From positions 1 through 60,564 of the forward strand of contig JALGSS010000005.1 of NCBI GenBank assembly GCA_029821745.1: 60,564 nt of DNA, written 5' to 3'. Origin of the DNA: Candidatus Zipacnadia bacterium. Its GTDB lineage: Bacteria > Armatimonadota > Zipacnadia > Zipacnadales > JABUFB01. Shown here piece by piece: positions 13,203-57,310 of this stretch (positions are counted from its first letter, which is position 1; each line of letters starts with the position of its first letter). The position numbers were made by a program, and so were the translations under genes. The notes beneath the pieces were generated by a model. That model was not told the origin of the DNA and did not search any database. It saw nothing but the letters and a program-made list of their open reading frames with translations.

Positions 13203-14228
13203 TCAATCTTCCTCCGCCACATCCAGTTCGATGATGTCGTGGGTCAGGCGGGTTACGTGGATGCCGTTCTCGATCAGCAGCGCCGCGAACTGCTCGCCGT
13301 CCATCAGCGCCACCGGCACCGCGTCCGGGCGCTCAGCCTCAGCCTGTGCGCGCTTGCTGAAGTCGCTCGTGGTGATGATGAGGCCTTGTTCGTGGGTGCC
13401 CAGACTCCCCCGCACCTGCTGCACGATCTGCGCCTGCACGTTGGCCTTCCAGCGCTTCACCTGCACCGCCATCCGGGTGCGCACCACCTCGCCGGTTACC
13501 AGAGTCCCGCGGACGTCGATGCCCCCGTCTTTGGCGCGCGCGGTCACCTCGATGTCCTCGAAACCCACCTCCGCGAGTAGCTGGCCCACCAGTTCCTCGA
13601 ACTCCGTGGGGTCCATCTTGTGCAGTCGCTTGCGCAGGTCCTTGTGCACCTGGCGGTTGTGCTGCTCGATCTGGAAGGCCAAGCCCTCCCCCATCCACTT
13701 CGTCAGCCCGAACAGGCCGCGTCCATGCTTGACGAAGCGTGGCTGCTCACCCCGGCCTTTGTAGCGCTTGATCTCTGAGATGATCTGGCTGTACATGGTC
13801 ATCTCGGGGGTCTTGCCTTCGGTCACCAACCAGCCCATTTCGATGGCCTTCTCGGTGATGTCGCGGTAATACATCGGGCGCTTGTCGCCACACGCGTCGA
13901 GCACTTTGATGGCCGACTCGGTGAATGAGTAGGTGTCGGCGGCGACGGTGGGAGCAGGCACGGGAGCGGGCGCCGGTGCGCCCTCCCGCAGAGCAAAGAC
14001 CCCGCGCTTCACGCGCACGAAGGTAGATTGATCGCCGTGCCGACGAATGTCCTCGCCCAGCACACCGCGAAGCGTGGCCTCGGGTGTGGCACCCCCGGTT
14101 GGCCACAGCTTCTGGTCGAGGATGCGGCGGGTGATCTCTTTGACGGGGAGCGGTCCTCCCGCGTCCTGCAGGACCTTGATTGCGGCTTCTCGTGCGCTCA
14201 TGGCTGTTCTTCCTTCCATACAGCTCAC
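13203..14228 (-). CDS. Mrr-family restriction endonuclease with two N-terminal HARE-HTH domains
   Basis: 341-aa ORF. There are two wHTH modules: EAAIKVLQDAGGPLPVKEITRRIL...FVRVKRGVFALRE, and ESAIKVLDACGDKRPMYYRDITEKAI...FVKHGRGLFGLTKW. The C-terminal Mrr_cat-like core is FEELVGQLLAEVGFEDIEVTARAKDGGIDVRG...MAVQVKRW...GLIITTSDFS. The likely start is the ATG at 14201, preceded by GGAAGGAAG. The ORF-track start at 14228 overlaps the upstream stop (ATGA). Confidence 0.85.
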   Translation of the reverse strand: MSCMEGRTAMSAREAAIKVLQDAGGPLPVKEITRRILDQKLWPTGGATPEATLRGVLGEDIRRHGDQSTFVRVKRGVFALREGAPAPAPVPAPTVAADTYSFTESAIKVLDACGDKRPMYYRDITEKAIEMGWLVTEGKTPEMTMYSQIISEIKRYKGRGEQPRFVKHGRGLFGLTKWMGEGLAFQIEQHNRQVHKDLRKRLHKMDPTEFEELVGQLLAEVGFEDIEVTARAKDGGIDVRGTLVTGEVVRTRMAVQVKRWKANVQAQIVQQVRGSLGTHEQGLIITTSDFSKRAQAEAERPDAVPVALMDGEQFAALLIENGIHVTRLTHDIIELDVAEED

Positions 14229-15424
14229 CGACGCAGGACCGCAGCGGTAGTCGAAGCCTGTCCCCGCGATAAGCTCTCGGCAAACTGCTTGATGCCCCTG
14301 TATTCGACGATGGCCTCTTCGGCAGGAGCCTTCTTTGTGTCCGCCAGCTTGTTGACGATGCGTTCACGCACGCATCCGGACCGATCAACGAGTACGAGTT
14401 CCTCGAGTCGCTCGCTCGAGTTGACGTTGGCGTCTACCTCGACAAGGTAGTTGGTCAGTTGATCGGCCGGTGGGAGCGAGTACCCGATGATTACCAGGCG
14501 CTTGCACTTGCGGAGTGCCATACGTGCTATCGCCCACAGGTTCTCAAGCAGCTGACACCGCGCTATTGGCTTGGTCCAGAGCGGCGGAACGATGAACCGG
14601 CGAGCCATATCCCCGAGGTCATACTCCGGCCCGTCGCCAGGCTGGAGCAGTTCCACAGAAGTGATTCGTTCGTAGTTGAGGTCACCGTCATTGCCCAATT
14701 GACGGCGTTCGTCCAAGTGACAGGGGTGTGCGTCTGGCGGCTCAGACCATAAGCTTTCAGGAGGGACGCCCATGTTGCCCACACGCCAACTCAGGCAACC
14801 GTGCAGATGGAGCAGGAACGCCTTGCCTCCCCGACGTGCTTCGCACAGCGCATTGCGGACACTGCGTAGCCGGATATCCCTGAGCCCGAGATCGACCTCG
14901 CAGCCCTTGCCAGCGTTGGACGAGGCGTCCTCCATCGCCGTGTCCATGACTGTGTCGTAGTTAAAGGTGATGACGGTGTCCCCCGGCTCAAGCGTGTCGG
15001 CGATCGCTCGGTGGTACGCGCAGTTCCTGCTCGCTGTCGTCTCGGCGATGAGCGCCGCAATGGCCTTGCGGTATGCCACCACTGGCTCAGCGAAGTTCCC
15101 CCTGCGCCCCGGCTTGTCGTCTGCGCCGGAGGTCGCCATGTGCACACGGAGAGCCTTGGTGAACTCCGCCCGAATGAAGTACTCCTCCATCTTAGCGTCA
15201 CCGTAGCTGGGGAGTCCCGCGCCGGCCACAGCATCATCGAGCTGTTCCTTCGCCTGCGCGACGAGGCTGCCGGGGGTTGCAGCGTTGCCGAGCTGCTTGA
15301 AGAAGTCTGCGTCCAGAGGGGGTTGAGGCGCCGGGTCAGGCCGCACGAAGCTGGCCCCCCGCGTTGCCCCAGCCCCCAGTATCACCAGTGTCGGAAGACT
15401 ACGACCTTGGCAGATCATATGCAC
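14225..15424 (-). CDS. SIR2-like (SIR2_2-type) protein, paralogue B
   Basis: About 397 aa. It has the N-terminal Rossmann loop LVILGAGATRGAS, then VITFNYDTVMD, then FLLHLHGC (the GAG / xNYD / HG triad of defence-type SIR2 domains). The best start is the ATG at 15418, 6 nt after GGAGGTG. Confidence 0.8.
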   Translation of the reverse strand: MHMICQGRSLPTLVILGAGATRGASFVRPDPAPQPPLDADFFKQLGNAATPGSLVAQAKEQLDDAVAGAGLPSYGDAKMEEYFIRAEFTKALRVHMATSGADDKPGRRGNFAEPVVAYRKAIAALIAETTASRNCAYHRAIADTLEPGDTVITFNYDTVMDTAMEDASSNAGKGCEVDLGLRDIRLRSVRNALCEARRGGKAFLLHLHGCLSWRVGNMGVPPESLWSEPPDAHPCHLDERRQLGNDGDLNYERITSVELLQPGDGPEYDLGDMARRFIVPPLWTKPIARCQLLENLWAIARMALRKCKRLVIIGYSLPPADQLTNYLVEVDANVNSSERLEELVLVDRSGCVRERIVNKLADTKKAPAEEAIVEYRGIKQFAESLSRGQASTTAAVLRR

Positions 15425-22733: not shown

Positions 22734-25700
22734 ATGGCACCACTGGACACCTCACTTCGTAACCAACTGGAGAAGGCCATCGTCGCGGCGCGGGACATGG
22801 CCGAGGCGGGGGCCAAAGCCGCTCTTGAACGGCTGGCGGTTGACGCCGACCAGCCCTTCGCGAGCATGTCGCCAGACGAGCGCGAGTTGCGCCGGCAGTT
22901 GCGCGCCAAAGCTCGGCAGCTCGGCGGCTCTGATGCGCTTCTCGCTGAGTGCGCCTACGAGCACTGGCACCGGATGCTCTTCGCGCGCTTCCTCGCCGAG
23001 AACAGCCTGCTCATGCATCCCACCGGTGTCCCGGTGACGCTGGAGGAGTGCGACGAACTCGCGCCGGATGAGGGCGCGGCGGATGGCTGGGAGCTCGCCG
23101 CCCGCTACGCCTCCCGGATGCTGCCGCAGATCTTCCGCACGGATGACCCCGTCCTGCAAGTGCGACTGGCACCCGAGCATGTGCAGGGGTTGGAGGCGCT
23201 GCTTGACCAGCTTCCCGTGACCGTCTTCGCCGATGACGACAGCATCGGCTGGGTCTACCAGTACTGGCAGAGCAAGAAGAAGGACGAGGTCAACGCCAGC
23301 GAAGAGAAGATCAGCGGGAAGAATATCGGCCCGGTTACGCAGCTCTTCACCGAGCCCTACATGGTTCAGTTTCTGCTGCACAACACTCTCGGCGCCTGGT
23401 GGCTGAGCCGGCACCAGGACGAGGCGCTGCCGATCGAGATGCCCTACCTGCGGACACTGGAGGACGGCACGCCGGCTGCGGGCGTCTTCGAGGGATGGCC
23501 TGACACCGCCTCCGAGATCACCGTGATGGACCCCTGCTGCGGTTCCGGGCACTTCCTCGTCGCGGCCTTCGAAATCATGCAGCGCTTCCGTATGGCCGAA
23601 GAGGGCCTGTCAGAGCGCGAGGCCGGGGATGCCGTGCTGCGAGACAACCTGTTCGGCTTGGAGATAGACCCGCGCTGCACGCAGATTGCGGCCTTCGCGC
23701 TGGCCTTCGCCGCGTGGAAGAGCGGCGGCTACCGCGAGCTGCCGGCGCTCAATGTAGCCTGTTCGGGTCAGAGCCTGCGGGGCAAGAGAGATGACTGGGT
23801 TGCCCTCGCCAACGGTGATGAGAAGCTCGTGGAGGGCATGGGGCAACTCTACGACCTGTTCGAGCAGGCGCCGGATCTGGGCAGCCTGATTGATCCCCAG
23901 AAGGCCGGAGCGGGGTCACTTCTGTCTGCCAATTTCGGCGAACTGCAGCCGCTGCTGGAGCAGGCCCTGCGGCGCGAGGCCGCGCAGAATGATGAGAACA
24001 TACACTTCGCGGGTATTGCGGCTCAGGGGCTCGCCAAAGCGGCCGAGCTTCTGGCGAATATGTACCACTTCGTCGCAACCAATGTTCCGTACCTTAATCG
24101 CAAGCGGCAACATGTGCGCATGTCGAGCTACATAGGGGAGCACTACTCGGCGGCCAAAAACGACCTGTCGACCACGCTTATTGTTCGCGCATCAACGCTG
24201 TGCGAGGCAGGCGGCGTTGTGGCGGCTGTCACGACGCAGAACTGGCTCTTCCTCAGTAGCTATACCAAATTCCGTCGGGAGATGTTGGCGGTGCATTCAT
24301 GGCTTGCCGTCGCCCGACTTGGGCCTGGTGCTTTCGAGACGATCAGCGGCCATGTGGTAGACGTTGTTCTCGTCCTCATGCGGCGGTCAACGCCGACTGA
24401 GGAACACCAAGTGGGCGCAGTGGATGCGTCAATGGCCGACACCCCTGTAGAGAAGGCAAGCCTCTTGCGGAGTGCCAGCGTGGAGATGTTCTCTCAGAGA
24501 GACCAGTTGGCCAACCCCGATGCCCGGCTCCTGCTCGATGCCCTCAGCAACCATCCGCCGTTGACGGACTTCGCCCGCGTACACGGGGGCATCTGCACAG
24601 GCGACAACCCACGCTTCCACAAGGAGTTCTGGGAGTTGCCGGCCATTGGCGGTGGCTGGATACGGCACAAGTCCGCCACGAGCGACACGTCGCCATCTGG
24701 GGGATGCAGCCTGCTTCTCCTATGGGAGGATGGCAACGGCACGTTCCACCGCACGCTGCGCGAACGTCTTGGCGAATTCGGAGTAGGCGCCTGGATTCGC
24801 GGCGAGGACGCGTGGGACAGGCGAGGCGTTGCTGTCTCGCGCATGGGCGATCTCCCGAGCACGCTGTACCATGGCGAAGCCTTTGATCAGTCTCTTGGCG
24901 TCATCGTGCCACTGTCCGAGCAACTGCTCCCCGCTGTGTGGGCCTTCTGCTCAAGTGCGGCGTATGCGAAGGCGGTTAGGCAGCTCGATCGCAAGGTGAA
25001 CGTAACGCATGGTACGTTTGTGAAGGTTCCCTTCGACCTCGAACACTGGCGGAAGATCGCCGATGAAGCCGGACCTCTGCCAGAGCCTTACTCCGAGGAC
25101 CCGACGCAGTGGTTGTTCGACGGCAATCCAGCACGCACCACCGAGCCGCTGCAGGTGGCTGTGGCCCGCCTGCTCAGTTACCACTGGCCGGACCAGGAGA
25201 CCAACGGGCTGGAGGACCTTGCTGACAAAGACGGTGTGGTTTGCCTGCAATCAGTCCACGGCGAGCCGCCGGCGGCAGACCGACTGGCAGCCCTGCTCAC
25301 GGCTGCCTATGGCGATGAGTGGACAGCGGCCACGCAGGCAGGACTGCTCGCCGCAGTGGGCTTCGAAGGCAAGTCACTCACCGACTGGCTTCGTGAGGGT
25401 TTCTTCAAGCAGCACTGCAAGCTCTTCCACCAGCGCCCCTTCATCTGGCACATCTGGGACGGGCGCAAGGACGGCTTCTCGGCGCTCGTCAACTACCACA
25501 AGCTCGACCGGGCTCTCCTGACACGGATCACCTACAGCTACCTCGGCGACTGGATCACGAGGCAACGGCACGCTGATGACCAGGGGGTCTCGGGAGCGAA
25601 TGCGCGCCTCGTCGCTGCGGAGGAACTGAGCGACAAGCTCAAACTCATCATCAAGGGCGAAGATCCCTTCGACATCTTTGTGCGCTGGAAGCCTTTGCAC

Positions 25701-25925
25701 GAGCAGCCTATCGGCTGGGAGCCCGACCTCAACGACGGCGTGCGACTGAATATCCGACCATTTATGGAGGCCGGGATACTGCGCGCCAAGCCCAGCATCA
25801 AGTGGAACAAGGACCGCGGGAAGAACCCACCCGGGTCGCCGTGGGGCGACGAACGCATCAACGACAAGCGTCTGAGCCTCGCCGAGAAGCGCGAAGCACG
25901 CAAGGAAGCGGGCGAGCCGTCATGA
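22734..25925 (+). CDS. pglX: BREX adenine-specific DNA methyltransferase PglX
   Basis: 1063 aa. The SAM-binding motif I is VMDPCCGSGHFLVAAF and the catalytic motif IV variant is VATNVPYL (NPPY-type). Confidence 0.9.
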   Translation: MAPLDTSLRNQLEKAIVAARDMAEAGAKAALERLAVDADQPFASMSPDERELRRQLRAKARQLGGSDALLAECAYEHWHRMLFARFLAENSLLMHPTGVPVTLEECDELAPDEGAADGWELAARYASRMLPQIFRTDDPVLQVRLAPEHVQGLEALLDQLPVTVFADDDSIGWVYQYWQSKKKDEVNASEEKISGKNIGPVTQLFTEPYMVQFLLHNTLGAWWLSRHQDEALPIEMPYLRTLEDGTPAAGVFEGWPDTASEITVMDPCCGSGHFLVAAFEIMQRFRMAEEGLSEREAGDAVLRDNLFGLEIDPRCTQIAAFALAFAAWKSGGYRELPALNVACSGQSLRGKRDDWVALANGDEKLVEGMGQLYDLFEQAPDLGSLIDPQKAGAGSLLSANFGELQPLLEQALRREAAQNDENIHFAGIAAQGLAKAAELLANMYHFVATNVPYLNRKRQHVRMSSYIGEHYSAAKNDLSTTLIVRASTLCEAGGVVAAVTTQNWLFLSSYTKFRREMLAVHSWLAVARLGPGAFETISGHVVDVVLVLMRRSTPTEEHQVGAVDASMADTPVEKASLLRSASVEMFSQRDQLANPDARLLLDALSNHPPLTDFARVHGGICTGDNPRFHKEFWELPAIGGGWIRHKSATSDTSPSGGCSLLLLWEDGNGTFHRTLRERLGEFGVGAWIRGEDAWDRRGVAVSRMGDLPSTLYHGEAFDQSLGVIVPLSEQLLPAVWAFCSSAAYAKAVRQLDRKVNVTHGTFVKVPFDLEHWRKIADEAGPLPEPYSEDPTQWLFDGNPARTTEPLQVAVARLLSYHWPDQETNGLEDLADKDGVVCLQSVHGEPPAADRLAALLTAAYGDEWTAATQAGLLAAVGFEGKSLTDWLREGFFKQHCKLFHQRPFIWHIWDGRKDGFSALVNYHKLDRALLTRITYSYLGDWITRQRHADDQGVSGANARLVAAEELSDKLKLIIKGEDPFDIFVRWKPLHEQPIGWEPDLNDGVRLNIRPFMEAGILRAKPSIKWNKDRGKNPPGSPWGDERINDKRLSLAEKREARKEAGEPS

Positions 25926-28267
25926 GCGATAACCAGACGGTCTTCGACGCCCTGCTGGCGGCGCTCGATAGCGTCCGCCAGTACAACTCCAACGATCAGG
26001 CAGCGCCCGCCGCTATCCTGTGGCCCGACAAGGGGCAGGAGTGGACTGAGTTGCTGCCACGCCTGCGGGAAGCACTGCCACAACTGCTGACCTTCGGCGA
26101 CTATGACCCTGGCACGAAGACCGGACCGGCCATCTGGCTGCGCTGCATGATCGCGCGCACCTTGCCGGAGGCGGACTGGTCTGAGGATGCCACGCCCATC
26201 ATCTACCTGCCCGGCTTCAGCCGGCAGGAACTCCGCGCGGTAGAGGAGTGCCCCAAGCCGCTTCTGCCCCTCGCAGAGCTGCAGTTCCGTGGTGTGCTCT
26301 TCAGTCAGGTCAGCGCCCGTGACTGGACAGCGATGGCTTTCCTGGTCTCCGAGGAGGGGGGAGGCCTCGGTCTCGATGTGGCGAGGGATCGAGCGACCGA
26401 AGAAGCCATGATGCGCGCGTTGCCGGCGCTTGCCGGTGAACACGTTGCAGCGCTTCGTGGCCGCAAGCTGCAAGCCGCCTACTTCGACGACCTCGTCAAT
26501 CCCGACGAGACCCGCAGTGTCCTGATGTGGCTGAGTGATCCCAGCGCAGTGCGCACAGCCTGGCCGGCAAACCAGTGGGACGCGTTCCGGGCTCGCTGCA
26601 CAAGCAAGTTCGGCTTCGATCCCGATACCGACGGGACGCTGATCGCGGCCGAGCTACTCGGCGCACGGAGCGGCGACTGGGCTACCGTGTGGGATCGCTA
26701 CGCGGAGGCCCCGGCGACGTATCCCGGCATCCCTGACCTGCTGCGCCAGGCTCGCCCGTCGGCAACAGACGACTTGTTCTTCGACCTATCCACCTGGCCA
26801 CAGGACAACCAGGAGATGGAGGACACGGTAAGAAAGCGGCTGGCCGAGTTGGGCGAGGCGTCACCAGCCGACGCTCGAACTGAGATCCGTCAGCTTGAGG
26901 CGAAGCACGGAGACCGGCGCGAGTGGGTCTGGGCCACGCTTGGGCAGGCACCACTGGCACAGGCTCTCGAAGCGCTGGCCGTCCTCGCGGACGTCACTGA
27001 GACGGCGCTTGGTGGCACGACCCCGCGCGAAGTGGCAGAGAACTACGTATCCGACCTCTGGCGCGCTGACGCTGCCGCGCTGGACGCTCTGGCGTGTGTC
27101 GAACACCCCGATGATGTGGCGGCAGTGAGCGAGGCGCTCAGAGCGACATACGCGCCCTGGCTCACGGCTGCCGCCGAACACTTCCAGCAGACGGTCGACA
27201 CGCACGGATACCCCGATGACAACGAGACAGGCGAGCGAGAGGATAGCACCTGCGTGCTCTTCGCAGACGGCCTCAGGTTCGACGTCGCCCAGAAGCTCGG
27301 GGCCGCACTGGAATCAGAGGGCATCGAGGCAACGGTCGACTGGTCATTCGCCGCTATGCCTACCGTAACGCCAACTGCCAAGCCCGCTGTGTCTCCCGTC
27401 GCCGGACTCCTCGCCGGCGGCGACACCGGAGAGGATTTCCTGCCGTCTACGAAGGCCGACAGCAGGAAGCTGACAGCTGACGTGCTTCGCCAATGCCTGG
27501 CACAAGAGGGCATCGACGTACTGGCGAACAGTGACACCGGCTCCACCATCGGCATCGCCTGGACGGAGTATGGTTCGCTCGACAAGCGAGGCCACGATGA
27601 GGGCACGAAGCTGGCCCGGATGATCGATGAGGAAGTGCGCGGGCTTGTGATCCGGGTGCGGCAACTGCTGGATGCCGGCTGGCGGAAGGTGCAGATCGTG
27701 ACGGATCACGGGTGGCTGCTGCTGCCCGGTGGGCTGCCCAAGGTCGAGTTGCCCCACTACCTCGCGCAGACGCGTTGGGGGCGTTGCGCAGTGCTCAAGC
27801 CGACCGCAAACACGGACATGCTTACGGTGCCCTGGCGATGGAACCAGGATGCCCGCATTGCCCCGGCCCCCGGCATCGGCTGCTTCATTGCAGGGCGCGA
27901 GTTCGCGCATGGCGGCCTCAGCGTCCAAGAGTGTGTGGTCCCGGTGGCGACCGTCTCAGGCGCGGAGCGTGGCCCAGAAGTCTCCATAGAGGAAGTGAAG
28001 TGGGTTGGTCTGCGCTGCCGGCTACAGATCGACGGCGGAGCTGGCTTCCTCGCTGACTTGCGCACAAAGGTAAGCGACCCGGAGTCGTCGGTGGTCCAGA
28101 AGGGCGAGCCAATTGCCGTCGCGGACGACGGATTGGCCTCACTGCTCGTGACGGACTACGATCTGGAGGGCACTGCTGTCAACGTTGTGATACTCGGCGC
28201 CGCGGGCGACGCGATTGCTCGGCGCGCAACGACGGTCGGAGGGGAGAGCGACGAAGATGGAACTTGA
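25922..28267 (+). CDS. pglZ: BREX alkaline-phosphatase-fold protein PglZ
   Basis: The ATG at 25922 overlaps the pglX stop (ATGA), giving MSDNQTVFDALL. The PglZ-type core is CVLFADGLRFDVAQKL...TDHGWLLLPGG. Confidence 0.9.
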   Translation: MSDNQTVFDALLAALDSVRQYNSNDQAAPAAILWPDKGQEWTELLPRLREALPQLLTFGDYDPGTKTGPAIWLRCMIARTLPEADWSEDATPIIYLPGFSRQELRAVEECPKPLLPLAELQFRGVLFSQVSARDWTAMAFLVSEEGGGLGLDVARDRATEEAMMRALPALAGEHVAALRGRKLQAAYFDDLVNPDETRSVLMWLSDPSAVRTAWPANQWDAFRARCTSKFGFDPDTDGTLIAAELLGARSGDWATVWDRYAEAPATYPGIPDLLRQARPSATDDLFFDLSTWPQDNQEMEDTVRKRLAELGEASPADARTEIRQLEAKHGDRREWVWATLGQAPLAQALEALAVLADVTETALGGTTPREVAENYVSDLWRADAAALDALACVEHPDDVAAVSEALRATYAPWLTAAAEHFQQTVDTHGYPDDNETGEREDSTCVLFADGLRFDVAQKLGAALESEGIEATVDWSFAAMPTVTPTAKPAVSPVAGLLAGGDTGEDFLPSTKADSRKLTADVLRQCLAQEGIDVLANSDTGSTIGIAWTEYGSLDKRGHDEGTKLARMIDEEVRGLVIRVRQLLDAGWRKVQIVTDHGWLLLPGGLPKVELPHYLAQTRWGRCAVLKPTANTDMLTVPWRWNQDARIAPAPGIGCFIAGREFAHGGLSVQECVVPVATVSGAERGPEVSIEEVKWVGLRCRLQIDGGAGFLADLRTKVSDPESSVVQKGEPIAVADDGLASLLVTDYDLEGTAVNVVILGAAGDAIARRATTVGGESDEDGT

Positions 28268-30302
28268 CACGCTCGACGATCTCGCTGCAAGAGCATTCGA
28301 GGGGTACATCGTGCGTAAGGACCTCGTGCGCGCCTTCCAGGGCCGCTACCCGGTCCCCACTTATGTTGGCGAGTTCCTCCTGGGTCGCTACTGCGCCACG
28401 ACCGATCAGGACGAGATCGAGGAAGGCATCAGCGTAGTCGAGCGCCAGCTCAGCGAAAGGGCTGTCCGCGCGGGCGAGGAGGAGCTCTTCAAGGCTCGCG
28501 CTCGGGAGGAAGGGGCGGTCAGGATCATCGACCTCCTCACCGCGCGCCTGGACGCACGCAACAACGTCTATGTTGCCACCCTTCCCAGTCTGCAGCTGAA
28601 GGACGTGCGCATCGAGCCGGGCCTGGTCCGTGAGAATGACCGGATGCTTACCGGCGGCTTTTACGCTGAGGTGGAACTCGAATACGACCCCGAGATTGCC
28701 AAGGAGGCGTCCGGCAGACCGTTCGGAGTGCGCAGCCTTCGGCCAATCCAGTTGTCCAAGCGCGACGTTATCGGTGACTACATTCGCGGGCGCCAGCTCT
28801 TCACGGCGGAGGAGTGGCGGAAGCTCCTCATCCGGAGCATCGGCCTCGAGCCCGACGCTCTCGAGCCAAGGGCGCAGGATGTGGCACTACTGCGCCTGGT
28901 GCCCTTCGTAGAGCGCAACTACAACGTTGTCGAACTGGGACCCAGGGGAACGGGGAAATCGCACGTCTACCAGCAGATTTCGCCATACTCCCACCTCGTA
29001 TCCGGTGGGAAAGCCACTGTGGCCCGAATGTTCGTCAACAACGCGAGTGGCCAGCGTGGCTTGGTCTGCCAGTATGACGTCGTCTGCTTTGACGAAATCG
29101 CCGGTGTGTCCTTCGACCAGAAGGACGGCGTCAACATCATGAAGGGCTACATGGAGTCTGGCGAGTTCAGCCGCGGGCGCGAGAGCATCCGGGCAGACGG
29201 TTGCATCGTCATGCTTGGCAACTTCGACGTGGACGTCGAGCACCAGCAGCGCATAGGCCATCTCTTTGGGCCACTGCCGCCCGAGATGCGTCACGACACC
29301 GCCTTCATGGACCGCATCCACGCCTACCTGCCGGGCTGGGACATGCCGAAGACCGCAAAGGAGTTGTATACCGACCACTTTGGTCTGGTGAGCGATTTCA
29401 TCTCAGAATGCTGGGAGCGCCTACGGGCGCAGAGCAGGGCCTCCGTGCTCCAGGGGCGTGTGCACTTCGGAGGCGCACTAAGCGGACGAGATGCTGGTGC
29501 GGTGACCAAGACCATCAGCGGACTGCTGAAGCTCATTTATCCTGACCCGGAGATGGCGGTACCTGACGAAGACCTCGAATGGGCAACCCGTCTCGCACTT
29601 GAGTGTCGGCGACGCGTCAAGGAACAGCAGAAGCGAATCGGCTCAGTGGAGTTCCGCAACACTCAGTTCAGCTACCAGCTCGGGGATGAAGACGTAGAGA
29701 AGTTCGTTGTTACGCCCGAGCTGCAGAGCGAAGACCACATCGGCGCCGACCCGCTGCCGCCGGGGCAGGTTTGGGGCATTAGCCCCGGAGGACTTGACGA
29801 GAACCCAGGGCTCTACCGTATAGACGTGAACGAAGGACCAGGCTCAGGCGTGAAGCTTCTCAACAGGCCCGCGCCGCCGGCATTCGTTGAGAGCTTGAAA
29901 TACGCTGAGCAGAACCTGTACGCAAGGTCCGACGAACTCGTCGGGGATCGGGAGCCAAGGGCGCACGAGTTCTCGGTCCAGCTGAGGGCATTCGATGCGT
30001 CGCAAAGCGGCGACGGGCTCGGGATGCCCTCCCTGATGGCGCTATGCACTGCCCTCCTGCAGCGAAGCCTGAAGGGCGGGCTGGTAGTCGTTGGCGGCCT
30101 CAACCTGGGAGGCACTGTTGATACGGTCCACAACCCGGTATCTCTCGCGGAGTTGGCAGTGGAGAGGGGAGCCGCGGCGCTCCTGATGCCCGTGTCTGCC
30201 CGCAAGCAGCTCTTCGACCTGTCCGACGACATGGCCACGAAGATTGACATCCAGTTCTACGCCGATTCCAGAGAGGCGCTGCTGAAGGCGCTGCTGGACT
30301 GA
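28257..30302 (+). CDS. brxL: BREX Lon-like protease/ATPase BrxL
   Basis: The protein begins MELDTLDDLAARAFEGYIVRKDLV. The AAA+ Walker A is ELGPRGTGKSHVY. The C-terminal Lon-protease-like domain reads GMPSLMALCTALLQRSLKGGLVVVGGLNLGGTV. Confidence 0.9.
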   Translation: MELDTLDDLAARAFEGYIVRKDLVRAFQGRYPVPTYVGEFLLGRYCATTDQDEIEEGISVVERQLSERAVRAGEEELFKARAREEGAVRIIDLLTARLDARNNVYVATLPSLQLKDVRIEPGLVRENDRMLTGGFYAEVELEYDPEIAKEASGRPFGVRSLRPIQLSKRDVIGDYIRGRQLFTAEEWRKLLIRSIGLEPDALEPRAQDVALLRLVPFVERNYNVVELGPRGTGKSHVYQQISPYSHLVSGGKATVARMFVNNASGQRGLVCQYDVVCFDEIAGVSFDQKDGVNIMKGYMESGEFSRGRESIRADGCIVMLGNFDVDVEHQQRIGHLFGPLPPEMRHDTAFMDRIHAYLPGWDMPKTAKELYTDHFGLVSDFISECWERLRAQSRASVLQGRVHFGGALSGRDAGAVTKTISGLLKLIYPDPEMAVPDEDLEWATRLALECRRRVKEQQKRIGSVEFRNTQFSYQLGDEDVEKFVVTPELQSEDHIGADPLPPGQVWGISPGGLDENPGLYRIDVNEGPGSGVKLLNRPAPPAFVESLKYAEQNLYARSDELVGDREPRAHEFSVQLRAFDASQSGDGLGMPSLMALCTALLQRSLKGGLVVVGGLNLGGTVDTVHNPVSLAELAVERGAAALLMPVSARKQLFDLSDDMATKIDIQFYADSREALLKALLD

Positions 30303-30706
30303 TCGATCCGAGCGCCGTTCGGGCCTCAGGCGACAAGCCCCGACCTGACGAGATACGCCTTTCGGGTGCGATCAGGGAAGTGCTCGTCCTCGCGGGCAAA
30401 CTCCGGCAGGTCTTCGGGGGATCAGCGGTCATACACAAGAACGAAGTCGATGGGAGCAACCGGGCGGCAACTAAGATGCTGACAACGTTCGCGTCTATCT
30501 GAACACGGGAGTGGACGCGACCACGCGCCGCGACGCTCAGGGGGGCACTTCTGGGTCCGTGGACCGTGCTCCCGGCGGGCTGCTGGCGACGGCGGAAGGC
30601 ACGCCACGACAGGGCGCCCGGGCAGCCGTCCAGAGATGGCATAGAGACCTGTCACTCACTAAGCGACGGTCTCGGACGCGATGGCGGGCGAACGCACGCA
30701 CACAGT

Positions 30707-30818
30707 GCCCATTGCTGATGCACTTTTCTCGATTATCCTGTGAGTTTCATGTATAGACCGGCTTGGGAGGGTCCATGCCCCACCGGCCTATTCGGAAGGG
30801 CTACTGCACAGGATAATC
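30707..30818 (+). other. Conserved promoter-like / long inverted-repeat element, copy 1
   Basis: TTGCTG (30712-30717), a 16-nt spacer, then TATCCT (30734-30739). The 12-nt arms GATTATCCTGTG (30731-30742) and CACAGGATAATC (30807-30818) are separated by 64 nt. That spacer contains an internal GACC...GGTC hairpin. Confidence 0.5.
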
Positions 30819-31130
30819 TCCCGTTTCCTCGATTCTGCGCGTTGGCCCGGCCTTTGCCCGGCAAAGACTGCGGGCAGGCCTGTCCACGGGGAGATCCCAG
30901 AGCACGAGTCATCGGCCTCAACCCACTCGGGTGAAGGCGTTCATATCCGCCGACGCCTCGAACAGCGCACGGGCAGGAGTGCGCGCGGAGATGGGCTGAC
31001 GAGATGAGTTCCGTCGCCCAGGGGAGCAGAATGATGTTGGGGCGAGTAAACCGGGAACGAGCCGGAGTGGTTGAGCTGGCGACGCTGACGGCTTCCCGTT
31101 GCCACCCCACGGCCAGCTGAGCCTGAAGGC

Positions 31131-31262
31131 AATTCCATGACCGAAGCACATGCAAGGACACCCCATGATGGTCTCGGTTTGAGGGACACCCCATGACGGT
31201 TCGGGGCGAAGGATACCCCATGACGGTTATCGTTTGAGGATTACCCCATGACAGTTAACCGT
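31131..31262 (+). repeat. ~28-nt periodic array, 4-5 units, core CCCCATGA(C/T)GG
   Basis: Cores start at 31161, 31189, 31216 and 31244 (spacing 28, 27, 28), plus a degenerate TTCCATGACCG at about 31133. The linkers contain GAGGGA, AAGGA and GAGGA. Confidence 0.8.
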
Positions 31263-31420
31263 GATTCCCGCCCCCGTTCGCCTGGTCACGCCCGTCAATC
31301 TGCCGCGATCAGTGCCTCTATCGACGCCCTCACCACCGGCGGCACTGCCGCCAAGACCTACTCGGCAACGGGCCATGCGTCAGCGGCTGCGCCTTCGGCC
31401 GGTTCGTCCGGGCTCACCGC

Positions 31421-31879
31421 CTATGATCCCTCGACCACGTCGCTGTCCGTGACGTGCGTTGCGCATGTATGCCGTAGTGTGTGGAGTGTCACGTGCGCCG
31501 TGATGTTCGCGCGTTCGGTCAGACGGGTAAGCAGTTGGCGGACATATTCAGCACTGGTCTGCCTGCCCGGTTGCGGGTCCACAAGCTCAGTGCCCTTGCC
31601 GAAGCCGGCCTGCGCCCGCACGGGGGCGTGGCCCCTGGTCTGAACCCCGGACCTTGGTCCGCTCATGGTGGGAGTGGATTGAGGCGCAAAGTGGTTGAGG
31701 GCGGACCGATATCGACGCGGCGGCAGCGCGGAACCGGACACCTGGTCAGGTAGCGGCCTCGAGCTCCCGGCACTCCTCCGTGCCCATCCAGTTGCGTACT
31801 TGGCCCAACTGCGAGAGCCAAGCTTTGGCGACTTCGTTGCGGGGGATGGAGCCGATCGTGCGTGTTGACGTGTGGGCAC
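31421..31879 (-). pseudogene. Decayed tyrosine recombinase fragment (unit 1)
   Basis: The translation retains GRQTSAEYVRQLLTRLTERANITAHVTLHTLRHTCATH (the HxxR box), but the region that should hold the C-terminal His/Tyr is deleted and the N-terminal part is degenerate. It is homologous at nucleotide level to 32773-33470. Confidence 0.6.
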
Positions 31880-31890
31880 ACGCAGACAAT

Positions 31891-32002
31891 GCCCATTGCT
31901 GATGCACTTTTCTCAATTATCCTGTGAGTTTCATGGATGGACCGGTTCAGGAGGGTCCATGCCCCGCCGCTACCTTGAGGCGGGCTCTCACACAGGATAA
32001 TC
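31891..32002 (+). other. Conserved promoter-like / long inverted-repeat element, copy 2
   Basis: TTGCTG (31896-31901), a 16-nt spacer, then TATCCT (31918-31923). The arms ATTATCCTGTG (31916-31926) and CACAGGATAAT (31991-32001) are again separated by 64 nt. The internal hairpins are GGACC..GGTCC and CCCGCC..GGCGGG. Confidence 0.5.
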
Positions 32003-32303
32003 TCCAGTTCCCTGAACCTGGCGTGTGGGTCCGCATCGCTCGGCAAGTCCAGAGCACGAGCCCAGCGGCCCCAACCGAGCACTCCTCGGACCCGGGTGGA
32101 GGCTCTCCTGTTCGTTGCCCCATGTGACAGGGCGCACGGGAGGGCCAGCGGGGATGGGCTGACGAGATGAGCTGCGTCAGCGAGGGGAGCAGAGCGATGT
32201 CAGGGCGAGTGAGTAGACGGGAGACGAGGCGCTCGGTGGGATGTTTGAGCTGGCGACGCTGGGCACTGTTTGTTGCCTCGCCACTGCCAGCTGAGCCCGA
32301 AGG

Positions 32304-32745
32304 TCATCCCATGACAGAGACGCAGAGAAGGATATCCCGTGACGGTCATCTTCAGAAGGACACCCCATGAAGGCTATCGATAGAAGGATACCCCGTGACG
32401 GTCATCTTCAGAAGGACGCCCCATGACGGCTATCGTTTGAGGATTACCCCATGACGGTCGTCTTCAGAACGAGACCCCATGACGGTTACCGTTTTCCGAG
32501 ACCCCATGACGGTTAACCGTGATTTCTGCCCCCCCAATCATGGAGGAATTGCTGAACGTAACCCCATGACGGTTAACCGTGATTTCCGCCCCCAATCATG
32601 GAGGAATTGCTGAACGTAACCCCATGACGGTTGCCGTTTTCCGTAACCCCATGACGGTTAACCGTGATTTCTGCCCCCAATCATGGTGGAATTGCTGAAG
32701 GTAACCCCATGACAGAAGCATCTGAAGGTAACCCCATGACAGAAG
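32304..32745 (+). repeat. ~28-nt periodic array, 13 units, core CCC(C)(A/G)TGAC(G/A)G, with a 58-60-nt higher-order repeat at its right end
   Basis: Cores start at 32308, 32335, 32363, 32391, 32419, 32447, 32475, 32502, 32562, 32620, 32647, 32705 and 32732. There are three copies of ACCCCATGACGGTTAACCGTGATTTC(T/C)GCCCCC(CC)AATCATGG(A/T)GGAATTGCTGAA(C/G)GTA. Confidence 0.85.
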
Positions 32746-32772
32746 CCGATACAACGACACCCTCCCGGGCGG

Positions 32773-33470
32773 TCACGGTCGCCGATCTCCTGCGCCGGCG
32801 GTCAGCGCCGCCAGTGCCTCGCGCACGGTTGGCGGCAGTGCTGCCAGAACCTCCTCGGCAACGGCCCGCGCGTCGGCCGCTGCGCCCTCTAACGGTTCGT
32901 CCGGGCGCAGTGCCCGGACTGCCTCGGCCACGTCGTTACCCGTGAGGTGCGAATACACCCTCGCGGTCGTGGTGACGTCGGAGTGCCGCAGGGCCTGTTG
33001 CACGAGCTTCAGGTTCCCGGTGGCACGCAGCAGATGTGTCGCGAAGGTGTGGCGCAAAGTGTGAGGTGTCACGTGCGCCGTGATGTTCGCACGCTCAGTC
33101 AGACGGGTAAGCCCCGCTGCCCTGTGGAGATCGTGCAGAATATGGGGCCGGCAGCGATTCCGAGCTTCCCGCGCGCGGCAAGCCATCGCGCCAATCGCGA
33201 AGCAGTTCGCCGGCCAACCGCGAGGTCCGCAGCCTTGCCGCCCTTGCCGTTGCGCACCTTGACGGCCATGATTTGCCCGGCCTCCGTCACCAGATCGCGC
33301 GTCTCAAGCGCCAGGGCCTCGCCGACACGCAGGCCCGCGTCGGCCATGAGTGTCAGCAGCGCCAAGTTGCGCTTTCCGGTCGGGCTTCGGGTTTCTATCG
33401 CGTCAAGCAGCGCATCAAGCTCCTCCACCGTGAGTGCTTCCTGCGCACGTGTGCCCCCGTTCTTGGCCAT
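32773..33470 (-). pseudogene. Short tyrosine recombinase (catalytic domain only), disrupted by a deletion/frameshift near 33125-33140
   Basis: ORF 33099..33470 (MAKNGG...LRVGEALAL...NGKGGK...PIFCTISTGQRGLPV*) continues in another frame as ORF 32773..33186 (...LTRLTERANITAHVTPHTLRHTFATHLL...LRHSDVTTTARVYSHL). All R-K-HxxR-H-Y elements are present, but about 22 nt are missing relative to the unit 1 copy (TSAEYVRQL region). Confidence 0.7.
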
Positions 33471-34202
33471 TCCTCCATCTCCCTGCGTTTACTTCCGCTA
33501 ATCTTGTATTTGCAGAAGTATATCACACACAAGAGCGCTGTGGAAGGATTTTCAGAAGTAATAACGCAAGCCAGTGGATTGTGGTGAGACACCGATCCAT
33601 GGTGCCGAGAGGGGCGTCCCGCCACTGTCAGGCGTGGCTTCTGGCGTTGCACGTGGAAACGGGCGCTGTCGCCAGAACCCGCGCGCTGATGCCGTTGCGT
33701 ATGCGTCTCACCAGATGCTTGCTTCTGTGCCAGCAAGCCACAAACGTTGGGTTCGCGCATACGCTACGCGCAGAGCGGGGCAGCGATATGTGCACATTGA
33801 TCACGGGTATTCGGCGGGGCAACGGGGGTGGCGGCAAGGCGGTAGCTCGCCGCCGCCGTTCGCCACGCTGTCGCACGGTGCGTGCAGCCGATCCGGCACG
33901 TGCCCGACGACTGCCTCCGTCCAGTTCGCCCCTCGACCGACGCCAGCCCTGCCTCTGCTGGCCCAAAGTGTATGCTGTCTCCGTCGCAGCCGTCCCATCC
34001 GTTGATACGCCCGGCAAGGGCAGAGCCCGTCGGCGCTCGCCTTGGGCAGTGCCCCCAATGGCCACAACGACCGGCTCCCACGCCGTTGCCAAGTCACATC
34101 ATCTCCGAGACGGCCTCGTTCACAGCCCGACGTCAGCCAATCCAGCCTGTCGTCGTGCGCGACAGGTCAAGGCACAATTCCGTCCGCAGGAGAGGGATTC
34201 TG

Positions 34203-36414
34203 ATGCCCTACCTGGCTCACTCCCCCAGCTCCGCGCAACACGAAGACCCAGTCGCAGCGCATTTGTCTGACGTCGCACGCACTGCGGCCGAACACGCCGC
34301 AGCGTTCGGCGGTTCTGAGGAAGCCCGCCTCGCTGGTCTGCTACATGATCTCGGCAAGTATGGTGACCTCTTCCAGAGGCGCCTGCAGGGCCTGGAGCAC
34401 GGCGTCGACCACTGGTCGGCGGGTGCGTGGGCAACGGTCAGTCTCTACCAGCAGTCAGGAATCGCCGCTGCGCTCGCGATCCAGGGGCATCACGTCGGCC
34501 TGCAGCAGGCGACGGAGAGCGACCTCAAGGACCTGTGCCCGGCGCGCCTTGAGGGCAACCACCCTCAGAACCTCCGCCTCTCGGAGCCGGACACTGAGCG
34601 GCTTCTCGGTCTACTGGCCGGCGATGGCCTGGTCCTGCCAGACCAGCCGGTTGAGAGCCTCTATAGTGGCCTGTATGGCCCTTCGGCCTCCGCAATGCTG
34701 GACGTCCGAATGTTGTTCTCCACGCTGGTGGACGCTGACTTCACGGAGACGGAGGCGCATTTCCAGGCGACGGGTCCTGATGAGAAGTCTTACCGACCGT
34801 GTGGGCCAGCACTTGAGCCCGAGCGCATGCTGGCAGCCCTGCGAGGGCATATCGATGACCTGGCGGCGAGTTCGCGGGCAACGCTGCACGTGAACAGATT
34901 GCGTGATGACCTGCTGAACGCCTGTCTGGACGCCGGCGCCCGACCGCAGGGGCTATTCACGCTCACCGCGCCAACCGGGGCCGGTAAGACCTTCAGCATG
35001 CTGGCCTTCGCGCTCAAGCACGCCCTGGCCCACAACCTGCGCCGGATTGTCATGGTCATCCCATACCTGAGCATCATCGAGCAGACGGCGGCGGCGTATC
35101 AGGAGGCGCTCGCCTCCGTGGTTCCGGAGGGCAGAATGAGCGAGACGATACTCGAGGACCACAGCATGGCCGGCGGTGGCGGCGATGCTGTCGACAGTGA
35201 CGATCAGCAGAAGGACCACAGCCGCTTGCTCGCCGAGAACTGGGATGCGCCCATCATCGTGACCACGAGTGTCCAGTTCCTCGAGTCGCTCTTTGCCAAC
35301 CGCCCGGGCAGATGCCGGAAGCTGCATCGCCTGGCCAACAGCGTGATCCTGTTCGACGAGGTGCAGACACTGTCCACGTCTACCTGTCTGAACGCTACGG
35401 GGCCAGCGTCGTCTTCTCCACCGCGACCCAGCCGGCGTTTGCGCATCTGGACAAAGCGGTCAAGCAGTTCTGCGTGGGGGGCTGGGCGCCCGAGGAGATC
35501 GTGCCTGCCAGTCTCGACCTGTTCGATCGAGGCAAGCGCACTCGGGTTGACTGGTCGGCGATCGATGAGCCTGTGTCGTGGCCGGACCTGTCCGAGCAGC
35601 TTGGGGGCGAGCGGCAGGGCCTGTGCATAGTCAATCTCAAACGCGCTGGCACTGTTCCATGAACTGGCAGCACGCGATGTTGAGGGTCTCCTGCATCTGT
35701 CAACGAGCATGTGCCCGGCGCATCGACGCAGTGTCCTCGATGAGGTGCGCGAGCGTCTGGACGTGGGCGATCCCTGTCTGCTGGTGGCGACGCAGTGCGT
35801 TGAGGCCGGCGTGGACCTGGACTTCCCGGTGGTGTATCGCGCTTTGGGTCCGCTGGACTCGATTGCCCAGGCGGCCGGGAGGTGCAACCGCAACGGGCAT
35901 GCGAAGATCGGTGAGGTGCACGTGTTCAGACCCGAAGATGATCGACGTCCCTACCCCGGAGCGGGGAAGTGAGCATATGGACATCAATGATCCCGGGCTA
36001 TTCGACGACTACTTCCGAGAGTTGTATGACGTCAAGGGCGTGGCGAACGCGGAGGACGAACTGATCAAGGCCATGGACCTGCAGCACTTCGCGGAAGTCG
36101 CTCGGTTGTACCGCGTGATCGAGCGGGGAGCGGTGAACGTGCTGGTGCCCTACTGCCCCGACACGTTCAACGCGCTGGCAGACAAGGTGAGGGAGAGCGG
36201 TCTGACGCGCAAGTGGATACAGAAGGCGCGTGCGCACACTGTCGGACTGTTCGTACCACGCGCGGACGATCCCGTGGCCGACCTCATGGAGGCAGTGCCC
36301 GTCCGGGGCGGCCGTGGGCAATCAGACGACTGGTTCATCTACTTGGGGGAGGGAGACTACAAGACTGGTGTGGGGCTGGTCACTCCAGACAAACTGTCAC
36401 TGTTGATCGGTTGA
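34203..36414 (+). pseudogene. cas3: Type I-C cas3 (HD nuclease + SF2 helicase) with at least three reading-frame changes
   Basis: The HD region is LAGLLHDLGKYGDLFQ. The helicase has motif I LTAPTGAGKT and motif II VILFDEVQTL in the frame of 34203. The sequence then continues in other frames: YLSERYGASVVFSTATQP (35312 frame), [30 protein letters not shown]...[30 protein letters not shown] (35631-35972), and DINDPGLFDDYFRELYD to the stop at 36414. Frame switches occur near 35365-35380, 35628-35645 and 35950-35990. Confidence 0.8.
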
Positions 36415-42197: not shown

Positions 42198-50768
<8,571 letters not shown>

Positions 50769-50834
50769 ACCGAGGACCTTCGGAACCACGGCACCAACGG
50801 CAAGGCAACAGCGACACAGCGACGACGGCAGGAA

Positions 50835-50893
50835 GTCTGCCTCACAGGCTGAACACTCTCACTGCAGGTGGTATCAAGACGGGGGCAAGAGCA
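50835..50893 (-). repeat. ~60-nt dispersed repeat, copy 1 (inverted relative to 57146-57205)
   Basis: GTCTGCCTCACAGGCTGAACACTCTCACTGCAGGTGGTATCAAGACGGGGGCAAGAGCA matches the reverse complement of 57146-57205 at about 54 of 59 positions, with one indel. Confidence 0.8.
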
Positions 50894-53901: not shown

Positions 53902-53930
53902 GGACGCCCCATGACGGCTATCGTTTGAGG
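53902..53930 (+). repeat. Isolated copy of the CCCCATGACGG unit, 29 nt identical to 32414-32442
   Basis: GGACGCCCCATGACGGCTATCGTTTGAGG is identical at both places. At 53931-53960 it is followed by a degenerate second unit (GATATCCGATGGCGG...). Confidence 0.8.
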
Positions 53931-54377
53931 GATATCCGATGGCGGCTGGTGATCGGTCACGGTTGGCTTGACGAACGGTGCGCTGGCGAGCGCTCTGTGG
54001 GCGCAGCGAGCCGCCGTGAAGGCGAGAAGGGCTGGGTGAAACCTGGGGCAATAGCATGCCTGGCGCGCGACGCGTGGGCAGGAGGCGGTGGAGAGGCATC
54101 GACTCAGTGGGATGGACAATGGCCCGCGACCTGCCCCAACAAGTGATACCAGTTCCTATGTGGTACTTTGGCCTCTCACGCTGCGCAGGGGGAAGGGTGA
54201 GCAGAGCGAGAAGCACACGAGCAGTTGTGACCAAGGAGGAAAGTACGACCCAAGCGGACAATGGGTCGTGTTGAGTGATGGGTATTGCGTGGGACGCAAG
54301 CCTTGCTCTGCAGGGCCGCGGACACTCGCGGCCCCAGTCGATACAGGTTCTCGTTAGGGACAGCAAGGAGGACACAC

Positions 54378-57145: not shown

Positions 57146-57205
57146 TGCTCTTGCCCCCGTCTCGATGCCACCTGCAGTGAGAGTGTTCAGCTTGTAAGGC
57201 AAGAC
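57146..57205 (+). repeat. ~60-nt dispersed repeat, copy 2
   Basis: TGCTCTTGCCCCCGTCTCGATGCCACCTGCAGTGAGAGTGTTCAGCTTGTAAGGCAAGAC. The ends CTCTTGCC and GGCAAGAC can pair (7 bp). Confidence 0.8.
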
Positions 57206-57310
57206 GCCCTACTATCGTCGTCGGGCGGGCGCGCGGAGATGTGAGCTTGGGGGGCCGACTGCCATTCGCTCGGATCGCGGCCCACGGCTGCGTGGCCTCG
57301 CTGGAGTAGC

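Follow-up and report, generated by a model that had tools for sequence, protein, structure and literature searches.

A variable-copy direct-repeat array beside a tyrosine recombinase gene in 'Candidatus Zipacnadia', possibly part of an attachment region

The DNA analyzed here, a 60,564-nt stretch of Candidatus Zipacnadia bacterium (phylum Armatimonadota; GenBank assembly GCA_029821745.1, contig JALGSS010000005.1, positions 1 to 60,564; hereafter, the window), contained a row of 13 short direct repeats (array 2) just beyond the 3' terminus of a gene for a tyrosine recombinase. We consider it possible, at a probability of roughly 40%, that this array is the variable-copy part of an attachment-like (att-like) region of a tyrosine recombinase made up of a catalytic domain only, that it expands by unequal exchange, and that it is now a relic. 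The observations in favor were the position of the array, the restriction of its core to three places, signs of selection on the motif, a solo copy, mosaicism, variation in copy number and the pseudogene status of the adjacent genes. If the units were recombinase sites, they would form an unusual variable-length tandem attachment region, used by a recombinase without the usual DNA-binding N-terminal domains.

Repeat units, spacing and conservation

All 13 units of array 2 lay on the plus strand and were built on the core ACCCCATGAC(G/A)G, with its ATG or GTG at 32311, 32339, 32367, 32395, 32423, 32451 and 32479 (units 1-7) and at 32506, 32566, 32624, 32651, 32709 and 32736 (units 8-13). The spacings were 28 nt (six times), 27, 60, 58, 27, 58 and 27 nt. 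Units 1-7 had a period of 27-28 nt, and the seven intervals of this length were followed by 58/85-nt higher-order repeats, in which three "long" units (58-60 nt, with the near-palindrome ATGACGGTTAACCGTGAT) alternated with short ones to give an 85-nt repeat. The terminal two units measured 27 nt each, and their end lay 30 nt from the recombinase stop codon. Tandem Repeats Finder reported periods of 28 (5.8 copies), 56, 58 (2.2 copies, 95%), 85 (1.8-2.2 copies, 95%) and 27 nt (1.9 copies, 100%). As the higher-order repeats were 95-100% identical, they were recent, and array 2 is an older 28-nt array whose 3' part has undergone a young, higher-order expansion.

A first-pass annotation of this DNA had proposed 13 direct repeats with a period of about 28 nt, which was confirmed by the period of 28 from Tandem Repeats Finder and by core matches far above those in shuffled sequence. 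With up to 1 mismatch allowed, the 11-mer CCCCATGACGG occurred 16 times in the window, always on the plus strand, whereas dinucleotide-preserving shuffles held 2.4 +/- 1.5 matches (maximum, 7) and 0 of 100 reached 16. Eleven matches fell in 32363-32742, 4 in 31161-31254 and 1 at 53907; two units of array 2 with two-mismatch cores (32307 and 32335) brought its count to 13. The motif was not a common dispersed genomic repeat, a case that the annotation had raised against its own proposal, as all 16 window matches lay in three places. The array that it had placed at 32304-32745 was present, but its bounds were better given as 32299-32760. A second, shorter array was likewise found where it had been reported, with 5 units at 31125-31275 (array 1; ATGs at 31137, 31165, 31193, 31220 and 31248), but a third, two-unit copy at 53902-53945 had been missed.

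A second assembly (L046) aligned with the window over 6.8 kb at 96.8% identity with only 3 gaps, indicating that the window was not riddled with indel errors. Among the RNA-seq and DNA runs searched with the region 30.6-33.6 kb, no reads or contigs covered the array, and three sediment metagenomes yielded low-depth fragments nearby only. Close strains occur in the metagenomes JGI 3300033143, 3300033145, 3300033149 and 3300033150.

The conservation of the units was assessed by aligning 25 of them from five arrays, of which 21 were compared and recent duplicates were left out. Mean pairwise identity was 80% for the core (-5 to +6 from the ATG) and 68% for the GAAGG preceding it (-12 to -8), whereas the 2-nt spacer and the linker each stood at 36%; the earlier statement that the core was kept while the linkers varied was thus borne out. 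In the unit logo, GAAGG occupied -12 to -8 and ATG or GTG position 0, and CC and TGA were invariant in 26 of 26 matches selected by a regular expression that itself demanded C at -1 and TGA, so that one unit lacking TGA (the second unit of copy Z2, introduced below; CCAGGGAC) was left out. Because tandem duplication copies whole units, near-random linkers beside a kept core indicated that the array was old and that the core had been retained by selection. Read from these identities, the conserved core and decayed linkers point to selection on a 12-bp motif.

The linkers had features of their own. A GGA motif stood ahead of 8 of the 13 units of array 2, and many linkers contained a short dyad that reused the ACGG of the core with a variable loop length; where the core read ACAG, the partner changed to match. 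Several of these dyads had loops of 0-1 nt. The stems CTTCA..TGAAG and GTCAT..ATGAC described in the first-pass annotation existed, but in 2-3 units only.

The solo copy lay 21 kb from the arrays, without a module of the kind described below, and matched array 2 with BLAST E values of 1e-9 to 1e-11. It occupied a 579-nt gap between two divergent genes of metabolic, non-defence type, one for a secreted 820-aa protein (minus strand) and one for a flavin adenine dinucleotide (FAD) oxidoreductase (plus strand), and was identical in the second assembly or strain, L046. The 10-mer CGGTCACGGT, which spanned the recombinase stop codon at 32770, recurred 21 nt past the solo copy. Two candidate explanations of this copy were not supported. 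A recombinase remnant beside it was suggested by collinear blastx hits, but these had E values of 1-18, and the family hidden Markov model scored nothing on six-frame tiles. For a 21-kb island reaching from array 2 to the solo copy, L046 offered no empty site as a comparison, since it showed the identical order of CRISPR end, 820-aa gene, solo copy and oxidoreductase. The 820-aa gene (51336-53798) had a 10-nt deletion at 51488 relative to L046.

The recombinase unit, its relatives and its neighborhood

Arrays 1 and 2 were parts of two tandem copies of one 1.6-1.9-kb unit consisting of promoter, recombinase gene, array and module (Table 1). Each array terminated a conserved non-coding module of about 0.45 kb; on its other side, no more than 30-40 nt from the last repeat unit, lay the 3' end of a recombinase gene that ran convergently on the minus strand. 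The module opened with a near-invariant block, TGCCCATTGCTGATGCACTTT, and contained a 12-14-bp inverted repeat (TTATCCTGTGAG ... CACAGGATAA) enclosing 62 nt that formed two hairpins. In module 2, the semi-conserved blocks GATGGGCTGACGAGATGAG, TGGCGACGCTG...GTTGCC and GCCAGCTGAGCCCGAAGG led into unit 1, and unit 1 and its junction were among the best conserved stretches of the module. The left end of module 1 was truncated at about 30690. An insert of about 100 nt (GGGCTGACGAGATGAG...GGGCGAGT) was present in both window modules (32140-32250 and 30976-31075) and missing from both modules found in a related genome; it carried a hairpin that was compensated between the two window copies.

The plus-strand promoter-like element that the first-pass annotation had placed upstream of the array (TTGACG near 31866) was not conserved: it was absent from two of the four module copies (window copy 1 and Z2), and in the window it fell within a minus-strand open reading frame (ORF) of 56 codons. 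The C-terminal motif of this ORF, PLLDxLRNWxSSxECREL, occurred twice at locus L002 (3818-3892 and 4465-4539), where there was no module. Between L002 and Z1, the ORF differed by 5 synonymous and 5 non-synonymous changes, against 2 and 8, and 0 and 9, in the other two frames. A role for it as an excisionase received no support from Pfam or PHROG. Long ORFs running from the last unit antisense to the recombinase were not conserved between copies.

Table 1. Features of the repeat-bearing units and of the solo copy, in window coordinates
Feature	Position	Strand	Description
Array 2	32299..32760	+	13 units GAAGG-N2-ACCCCATGAC(G/A)G plus variable linker
Array 1	31125..31275	+	5 units, the last of the long type; abuts the remnant of recombinase copy 1
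Module 2	31890..32298	+	block TGCCCATTGCTGATGCACTTT; inverted repeat 31917-31928 / 31989-32000 around two hairpins
Module 1	30690..31124	+	74% identical to module 2; inverted repeat 30733-30744 / 30807-30816
Tyrosine recombinase copy 2	32773..33470	-	pseudogene judging by its reading frame; catalytic domain only
Recombinase copy 1 remnant	31319..31714	-	residues ~95-244; internal stops, 29-codon gap, N-terminus and promoter lost
Sigma-70-like promoter match	33517..33544	-	TCCACA-16-TGnTATACT, upstream of recombinase 2
56-codon ORF	31746..31916	-	starts directly after the module inverted repeat; conserved in Z1 (L001 1038-1208); status uncertain
Solo two-unit copy	53902..53945	+	88.6% identical to array 2 units 5-6 (32414-32457); first 29 nt identical

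As judged from their reading frames, both recombinase copies in the window are pseudogenes. Relative to an intact homologue (P0001), copy 2 was missing about 33 codons between 33111 and 33114 and was frame-shifted. The Pfam Phage_integrase domain spanned residues 12-177, Xer profiles aligned from model position ~102-112 onward, and the closest solved relatives were the catalytic domains of XerA, XerH, IntI4 and XerD. A C-terminal tail, VLAALPxEVRxA, was conserved after the catalytic tyrosine. The sigma-70-like match upstream of recombinase 2 was the only one in the unit conserved between genomes, recurring at L001 5926-5954. A scan for terminator-like sites found none in the interval from the recombinase stop codon to the array, and none on the recombinase strand across the region covered. 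The recombinase had hundreds of homologues, about 255 aa long and mostly from Armatimonadota metagenomes.

Module and array together were found in one other place only, the contig JALGSU010000022 (loci L001, L020 and L021) of a 'Ca. Zipacnadia' metagenome-assembled genome (MAG). This genome is very close to that of the window, as window positions 1-213 were 98.6% identical to L001 11563-11775; in the MAG, the counterpart of these positions adjoined glycoside-hydrolase-like genes. The MAG held two copies: Z2, with the intact recombinase P0001 and 3 repeat units, and Z1, with a recombinase 41% identical to P0001 and 1-2 repeat units. The unit counts were accordingly 1-2 (Z1), 3 (Z2), 5 (array 1) and 13 (array 2), the two largest standing beside dead recombinase genes, and they agreed with the earlier suggestion that the array grows and shrinks. 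Full copies of module and array thus numbered four, from two genomes, and the mechanism discussed below was derived from these. The link to the adjacent recombinase that had been proposed was also supported, as every one of the four full copies had the array flanked by the module on one side and by the 3' end of a convergently oriented recombinase gene on the other. This position was kept across two recombinase subtypes, including that of Z1, whose recombinase was only 41% identical to the others.

The copies were mosaics of one another. Module 2 was closest to that of Z1 (87.5%) and recombinase 2 to that of Z2 (90%), and array 2 joined the terminal unit types of array 1 (GTTAACCGTGATT.CCGCCCCC) and of Z2 (GCCGATACAA.GACAC). 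Copies whose modules were only 70-87% identical had unit types in common, for example the GGTCATCTTCA type, unit 1 and a pair made up of GGCTATCGTTT and GAGGATT.

Outside the MAG, neither module nor array was found at 16 loci (10 distinct places) around both recombinase subtypes at 62-82% identity, the recombinase-homologue loci compared being L002, L003, L026-L031 and L040-L045. The genome and metagenome scans used module patterns, and the motif itself was scanned in viral contigs only. In the genome collection, the 18-mer TGCCCATTGCTGATGCAC gave 21 matches, of which two were real (on the MAG contig) and the rest agreed with the ~17 expected by chance; in the metagenomes, the inverted-repeat pattern gave one chance match, in eukaryote-like DNA. 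Among viral contigs, two cores 10-25 nt apart occurred 8 times, always as unrelated coding repeats or by chance, and the inverted-repeat pattern was not found. BLAST searches of module and array against GenBank phages and PLSDB plasmids returned no match. These scans, together with the homologue loci without an array, indicated that the motif is a lineage-specific block travelling with the 3' end of these recombinase genes, not one scattered through the genome or shared across the recombinase family as a whole.

The two recombinase units sat within a defence island, with BREX on one side and type I-C CRISPR-Cas on the other. Its genes included PLD-like and DUF6361 (2939-6089), DUF7669 (7093-8376), a HerA-like ATPase (8310-10040), Mrr/HARE-HTH (13203-14228), SIR2-like (14225-15424) and BREX pglX-like, pglZ and brxL (22734-30302); from about 51 kb on, carbohydrate-metabolism and oxidoreductase genes lay outside the island. 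The comparison with the MAG suggests that the latter lost, or never had, the defence island of about 30 kb at this hotspot. The recombinase family adjoined defence genes in 6 of the 10 distinct loci examined, the window included, and in both subtypes (elsewhere at L002, L003, L040, L044 and L045). The neighbors in other Armatimonadota contigs were a DUF499 ATPase, which we take to be BrxC-like, DUF7669 (70% nucleotide identity to window 7151-8151), an SNF2/NOV_C helicase, GmrSD and Cas3. This recombinase family may therefore serve to transfer defence cassettes, or to reshuffle them, in a phylum that has received little study.

The CRISPR array of about 8.3 kb (42463-50768) contained about 126 repeats of GTCGCCCCCCGCACGGGGGCGTGGATTGAAAC. 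At its cas-proximal end (42463-42624), a 65-nt period recurred 2.5 times at 100% identity, representing duplicated spacers, and its last spacers were common to the window and L046. The type I-C cas3 gene (33882-36414) was split over at least 3 frames, with HD and DEAD motifs at 33882-35630 and the Cas3 C-terminal domain at 35709-35972, and is probably a pseudogene. A 72-75-nt element just past the CRISPR trailer (50822-50893) recurred, inverted, at 57146-57220, in L046 at 6727-6801 and 391-464, and in L002 at 4277-4346, with 83-87% identity, and may be a small dispersed repeat.

The attachment-region reading and its rivals

Were the array part of an attachment region, its core would be a DNA motif to which the recombinase, or a protein acting with it, binds. 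Accessory sites would be provided by the single, directly repeated cores, and the long units, which contain ATGAC-GGTTAACC-GTGAT with short inverted half-sites around 8 bp, would be candidate crossover sites by virtue of the second, inverted half-site 8 bp away. The solo copy may then be a scar left by excision or a site of the attB kind. Unequal exchange between units, whether site-specific or homologous, would alter copy number, and with both window recombinases dead, the array would now be a relic whose copy number had drifted upward. As a decaying relic, the window unit would have little local significance.

Several observations weighed against an attachment region. Inverted recombinase-binding elements of 11-13 bp were not found as a clear pair, the half-sites of the long units being only 5 bp. 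The recombinase had neither arm-binding nor core-binding domains with which to read a 12-bp motif; classical arm-type binding, which the first-pass annotation had offered, is thus unlikely, as Pfam and NCBIfam models aligned with the catalytic domain only, from residue ~12 onward. Close homologues elsewhere were without module or array, so the array is no family-wide requirement. The breakpoint between Z1-like and Z2-like sequence fell near 32905, inside the recombinase gene and off the array, and no pair of empty and occupied sites, nor an attL/attR pair, was found; exact-protein look-ups with BrxL and the recombinase fragment returned nothing. The period of 27-28 bp is a non-integral number of helical turns, and the GAAGG-N7-ATG layout with its ATGA overlap is unexplained by a DNA-binding model. 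An extension of this reading, in which module and array form an integron-like landing pad, a row of expandable crossover sites where Armatimonadota catalytic-domain-only recombinases stack cassettes, many of them for defence, seems to us quite improbable. Each event would then change the number of units, up or down, and the copy at 53.9 kb, like other solo copies, would be a distal junction; if true, both the architecture of the att site and the way in which defence islands are built from it would be new.

A neutral origin is somewhat unlikely in our estimation, although the recent expansions beside pseudogenes fit it. On this explanation, the array is a minisatellite that never had a function: in the decaying remains of a mobile element, a short stretch was duplicated and then grew by slippage or unequal crossing-over. 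Large expansions (5 and 13 units) stood only beside dead recombinase genes, whereas the intact MAG genes had 1-3 units next to them, the higher-order repeats were recent at 95-100% identity, other members of the recombinase family had no array, and neighboring genes were broken too, as seen in the frames of cas3 and the 10-nt deletion in the 820-aa gene. However, a minisatellite would not be expected to keep 80% identity in the core and 68% in GAAGG while its linkers fell to 36%. The multi-unit arrays also shared unit types across copies whose modules were only 70-87% identical, conservation within the module was among the highest at unit 1 and its junction, and two strains had the solo copy in unchanged form. 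Transcription of the plus strand, which we regard as unlikely, would give the units another meaning: the module, of about 430 nt, would be a structured leader, and the units would be elements of ribosome-binding site and start codon, acting as a chain of ATGA-coupled mini-ORFs or as a decoy for ribosomes or an RNA-binding protein, possibly to control or oppose recombinase expression by convergent transcription. The unit resembled a translation start with a 7-nt spacing ideal for a Shine-Dalgarno sequence, and the 28-nt period let each ATG open a 19-codon ORF that stopped at the ATGA two units on (both window copies and Z2; an 18-codon ORF in Z1). Linker dyads with variable loop lengths fitted hairpins better than a dimeric DNA site, folding z-scores were -1.2, -1.4 and -2.6 on the plus strand versus -0.3, 0.0 and -1.4 on the minus strand, and in all four copies a closing helix was predicted between the 5' block and the unit 1 GAAGG. 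Yet no conserved plus-strand promoter or terminator was found, the peptide sequences were not conserved, units 7-11 of array 2 had lost GAAGG, no plus-strand gene followed the array and the solo copy preceded no gene. Rfam gave no relevant match (whole window at gathering thresholds; 30.3-33.9 kb at permissive E-values), consensus folding of the four modules gave equal energies on both strands, with 6 compensated pairs each and a covariation energy of about 0, and the several dyads with loops of 0-1 nt cannot form in RNA. Were this reading right, the array would be an uncommon example of translation-start mimics arranged in series.

Two further kinds of explanation received far less weight. 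We think it very unlikely that the array served a lost replicon, as iterons or as a centromere-like site, or that it acts as a protein sponge of the CsrA/RsmA type, all of which the first-pass annotation had suggested. The many regularly spaced direct repeats, the GGA in 8 of 13 units and a primase-polymerase gene about 2 kb from Z1 in the MAG were compatible with one or the other, but the window contained no rep or par genes for replication or partition (Pfam matches were to BREX, Cas and other defence genes and the recombinase), the spacing of 27-28 bp was out of helical phase, and module and array travelled with the recombinase and not with replication genes. A sponge RNA was disfavored in particular, as most GGA motifs lay between, not in, the loops of the minimum-free-energy fold, no conserved promoter or terminator and no Rfam match was found, and the folding z-scores were only -1.2 to -2.6. 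A tandem-repeat defence RNA, either a ToxI-like type III antitoxin or a CRISPR-like array, is barely credible, even though the idea is invited by short, non-coding direct repeats that lie within a defence island and are flanked by BREX and type I-C CRISPR-Cas. No ToxN/AbiQ-like or other toxin gene was found on the plus strand, the next gene being the convergent recombinase 30 nt away, and no terminator followed the array. Known type III antitoxin repeats are 34-45 nt long, compared with 28 nt here. The first-pass annotation had already dismissed a CRISPR array, and rightly so: within the 27-28-nt period, about 19 positions were conserved and the 9-11 variable ones were too short for spacers, and the repeat was unrelated to the CRISPR repeat of the window, GTCGCCCCCCGCACGGGGGCGTGGATTGAAAC.

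Comparison with known systems

ToxI arrays of type III toxin-antitoxin systems are likewise short tandem non-coding repeats in defence islands; unlike them, the array had no toxin gene, no terminator, a shorter unit and a variable copy number. The sponge RNAs CsrB and RsmZ also contain repeated units with A(R)GGA, but here there was no promoter or terminator, GGA lay mostly outside hairpin loops and Rfam gave no match. An integron with attI and attC sites was rejected: integron-integrase models scored 76.5 and 57.2 against cut-offs of 265 and 435, aligning with the C-terminal region only, and the gene was convergent, not divergent. The invertases FimB and FimE are catalytic-domain-only enzymes as well, and NCBIfam PRK09871 aligned over residues 12-205, but with a score of 36.6 against a cut-off of 222 bits, and the best similarity was to Xer-type catalytic domains. 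A switch of the FimB/FimE type was also set aside, as no invertible segment was found and the 62-bp stretch between the module inverted repeats had the same orientation in 4 of 4 copies.

Tandem islands of the tycheposon type target tRNA genes and leave tRNA-fragment repeats. As in such hotspots, recombinase units were stacked with decayed remnants, with cargo between them that in the window was made up of defence genes and in the MAG of glycoside-hydrolase-like ones. They differed in that the repeated junction was a 28-nt unit and that no tRNA-like sequence was found by Rfam, no dedicated tRNA scan having been run.

In the TnpI resolution sites of Tn4430 and Tn5401 and in the FRT site of Flp, one motif serves as an inverted pair at the crossover site and as direct repeats at accessory positions. 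The recombinase examined here resembled these enzymes in having no separate arm-binding domain, and its putative motif likewise occurred as a (weak) inverted pair and as direct repeats beside its own gene. Those systems have 3-4 motifs in ~50-120 bp, fixed in number, whereas the motif varied here from 1 to 13 and had no Tn3-family transposon or plasmid context, and its binding is only predicted.

In lambda-type elements, the att site lies next to the 3' end of int. Against this model, the recombinase was without an arm-binding N-domain, the repeats reached up to 13 copies at a strict 27-28 nt, and no canonical inverted core pair was found; the nearest approach was a weak inverted pair (ATGAC / GTGAT around GGTTAACC) in long units only. 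Adjacency to the 3' end of the recombinase gene was seen in 4 of 4 copies, and as in lambda-type attP or attL, the direct repeats lay just past the 3' end of a tyrosine integrase gene, with a stand-alone chromosomal copy that had a short identical core and was, in this respect, attB-like.

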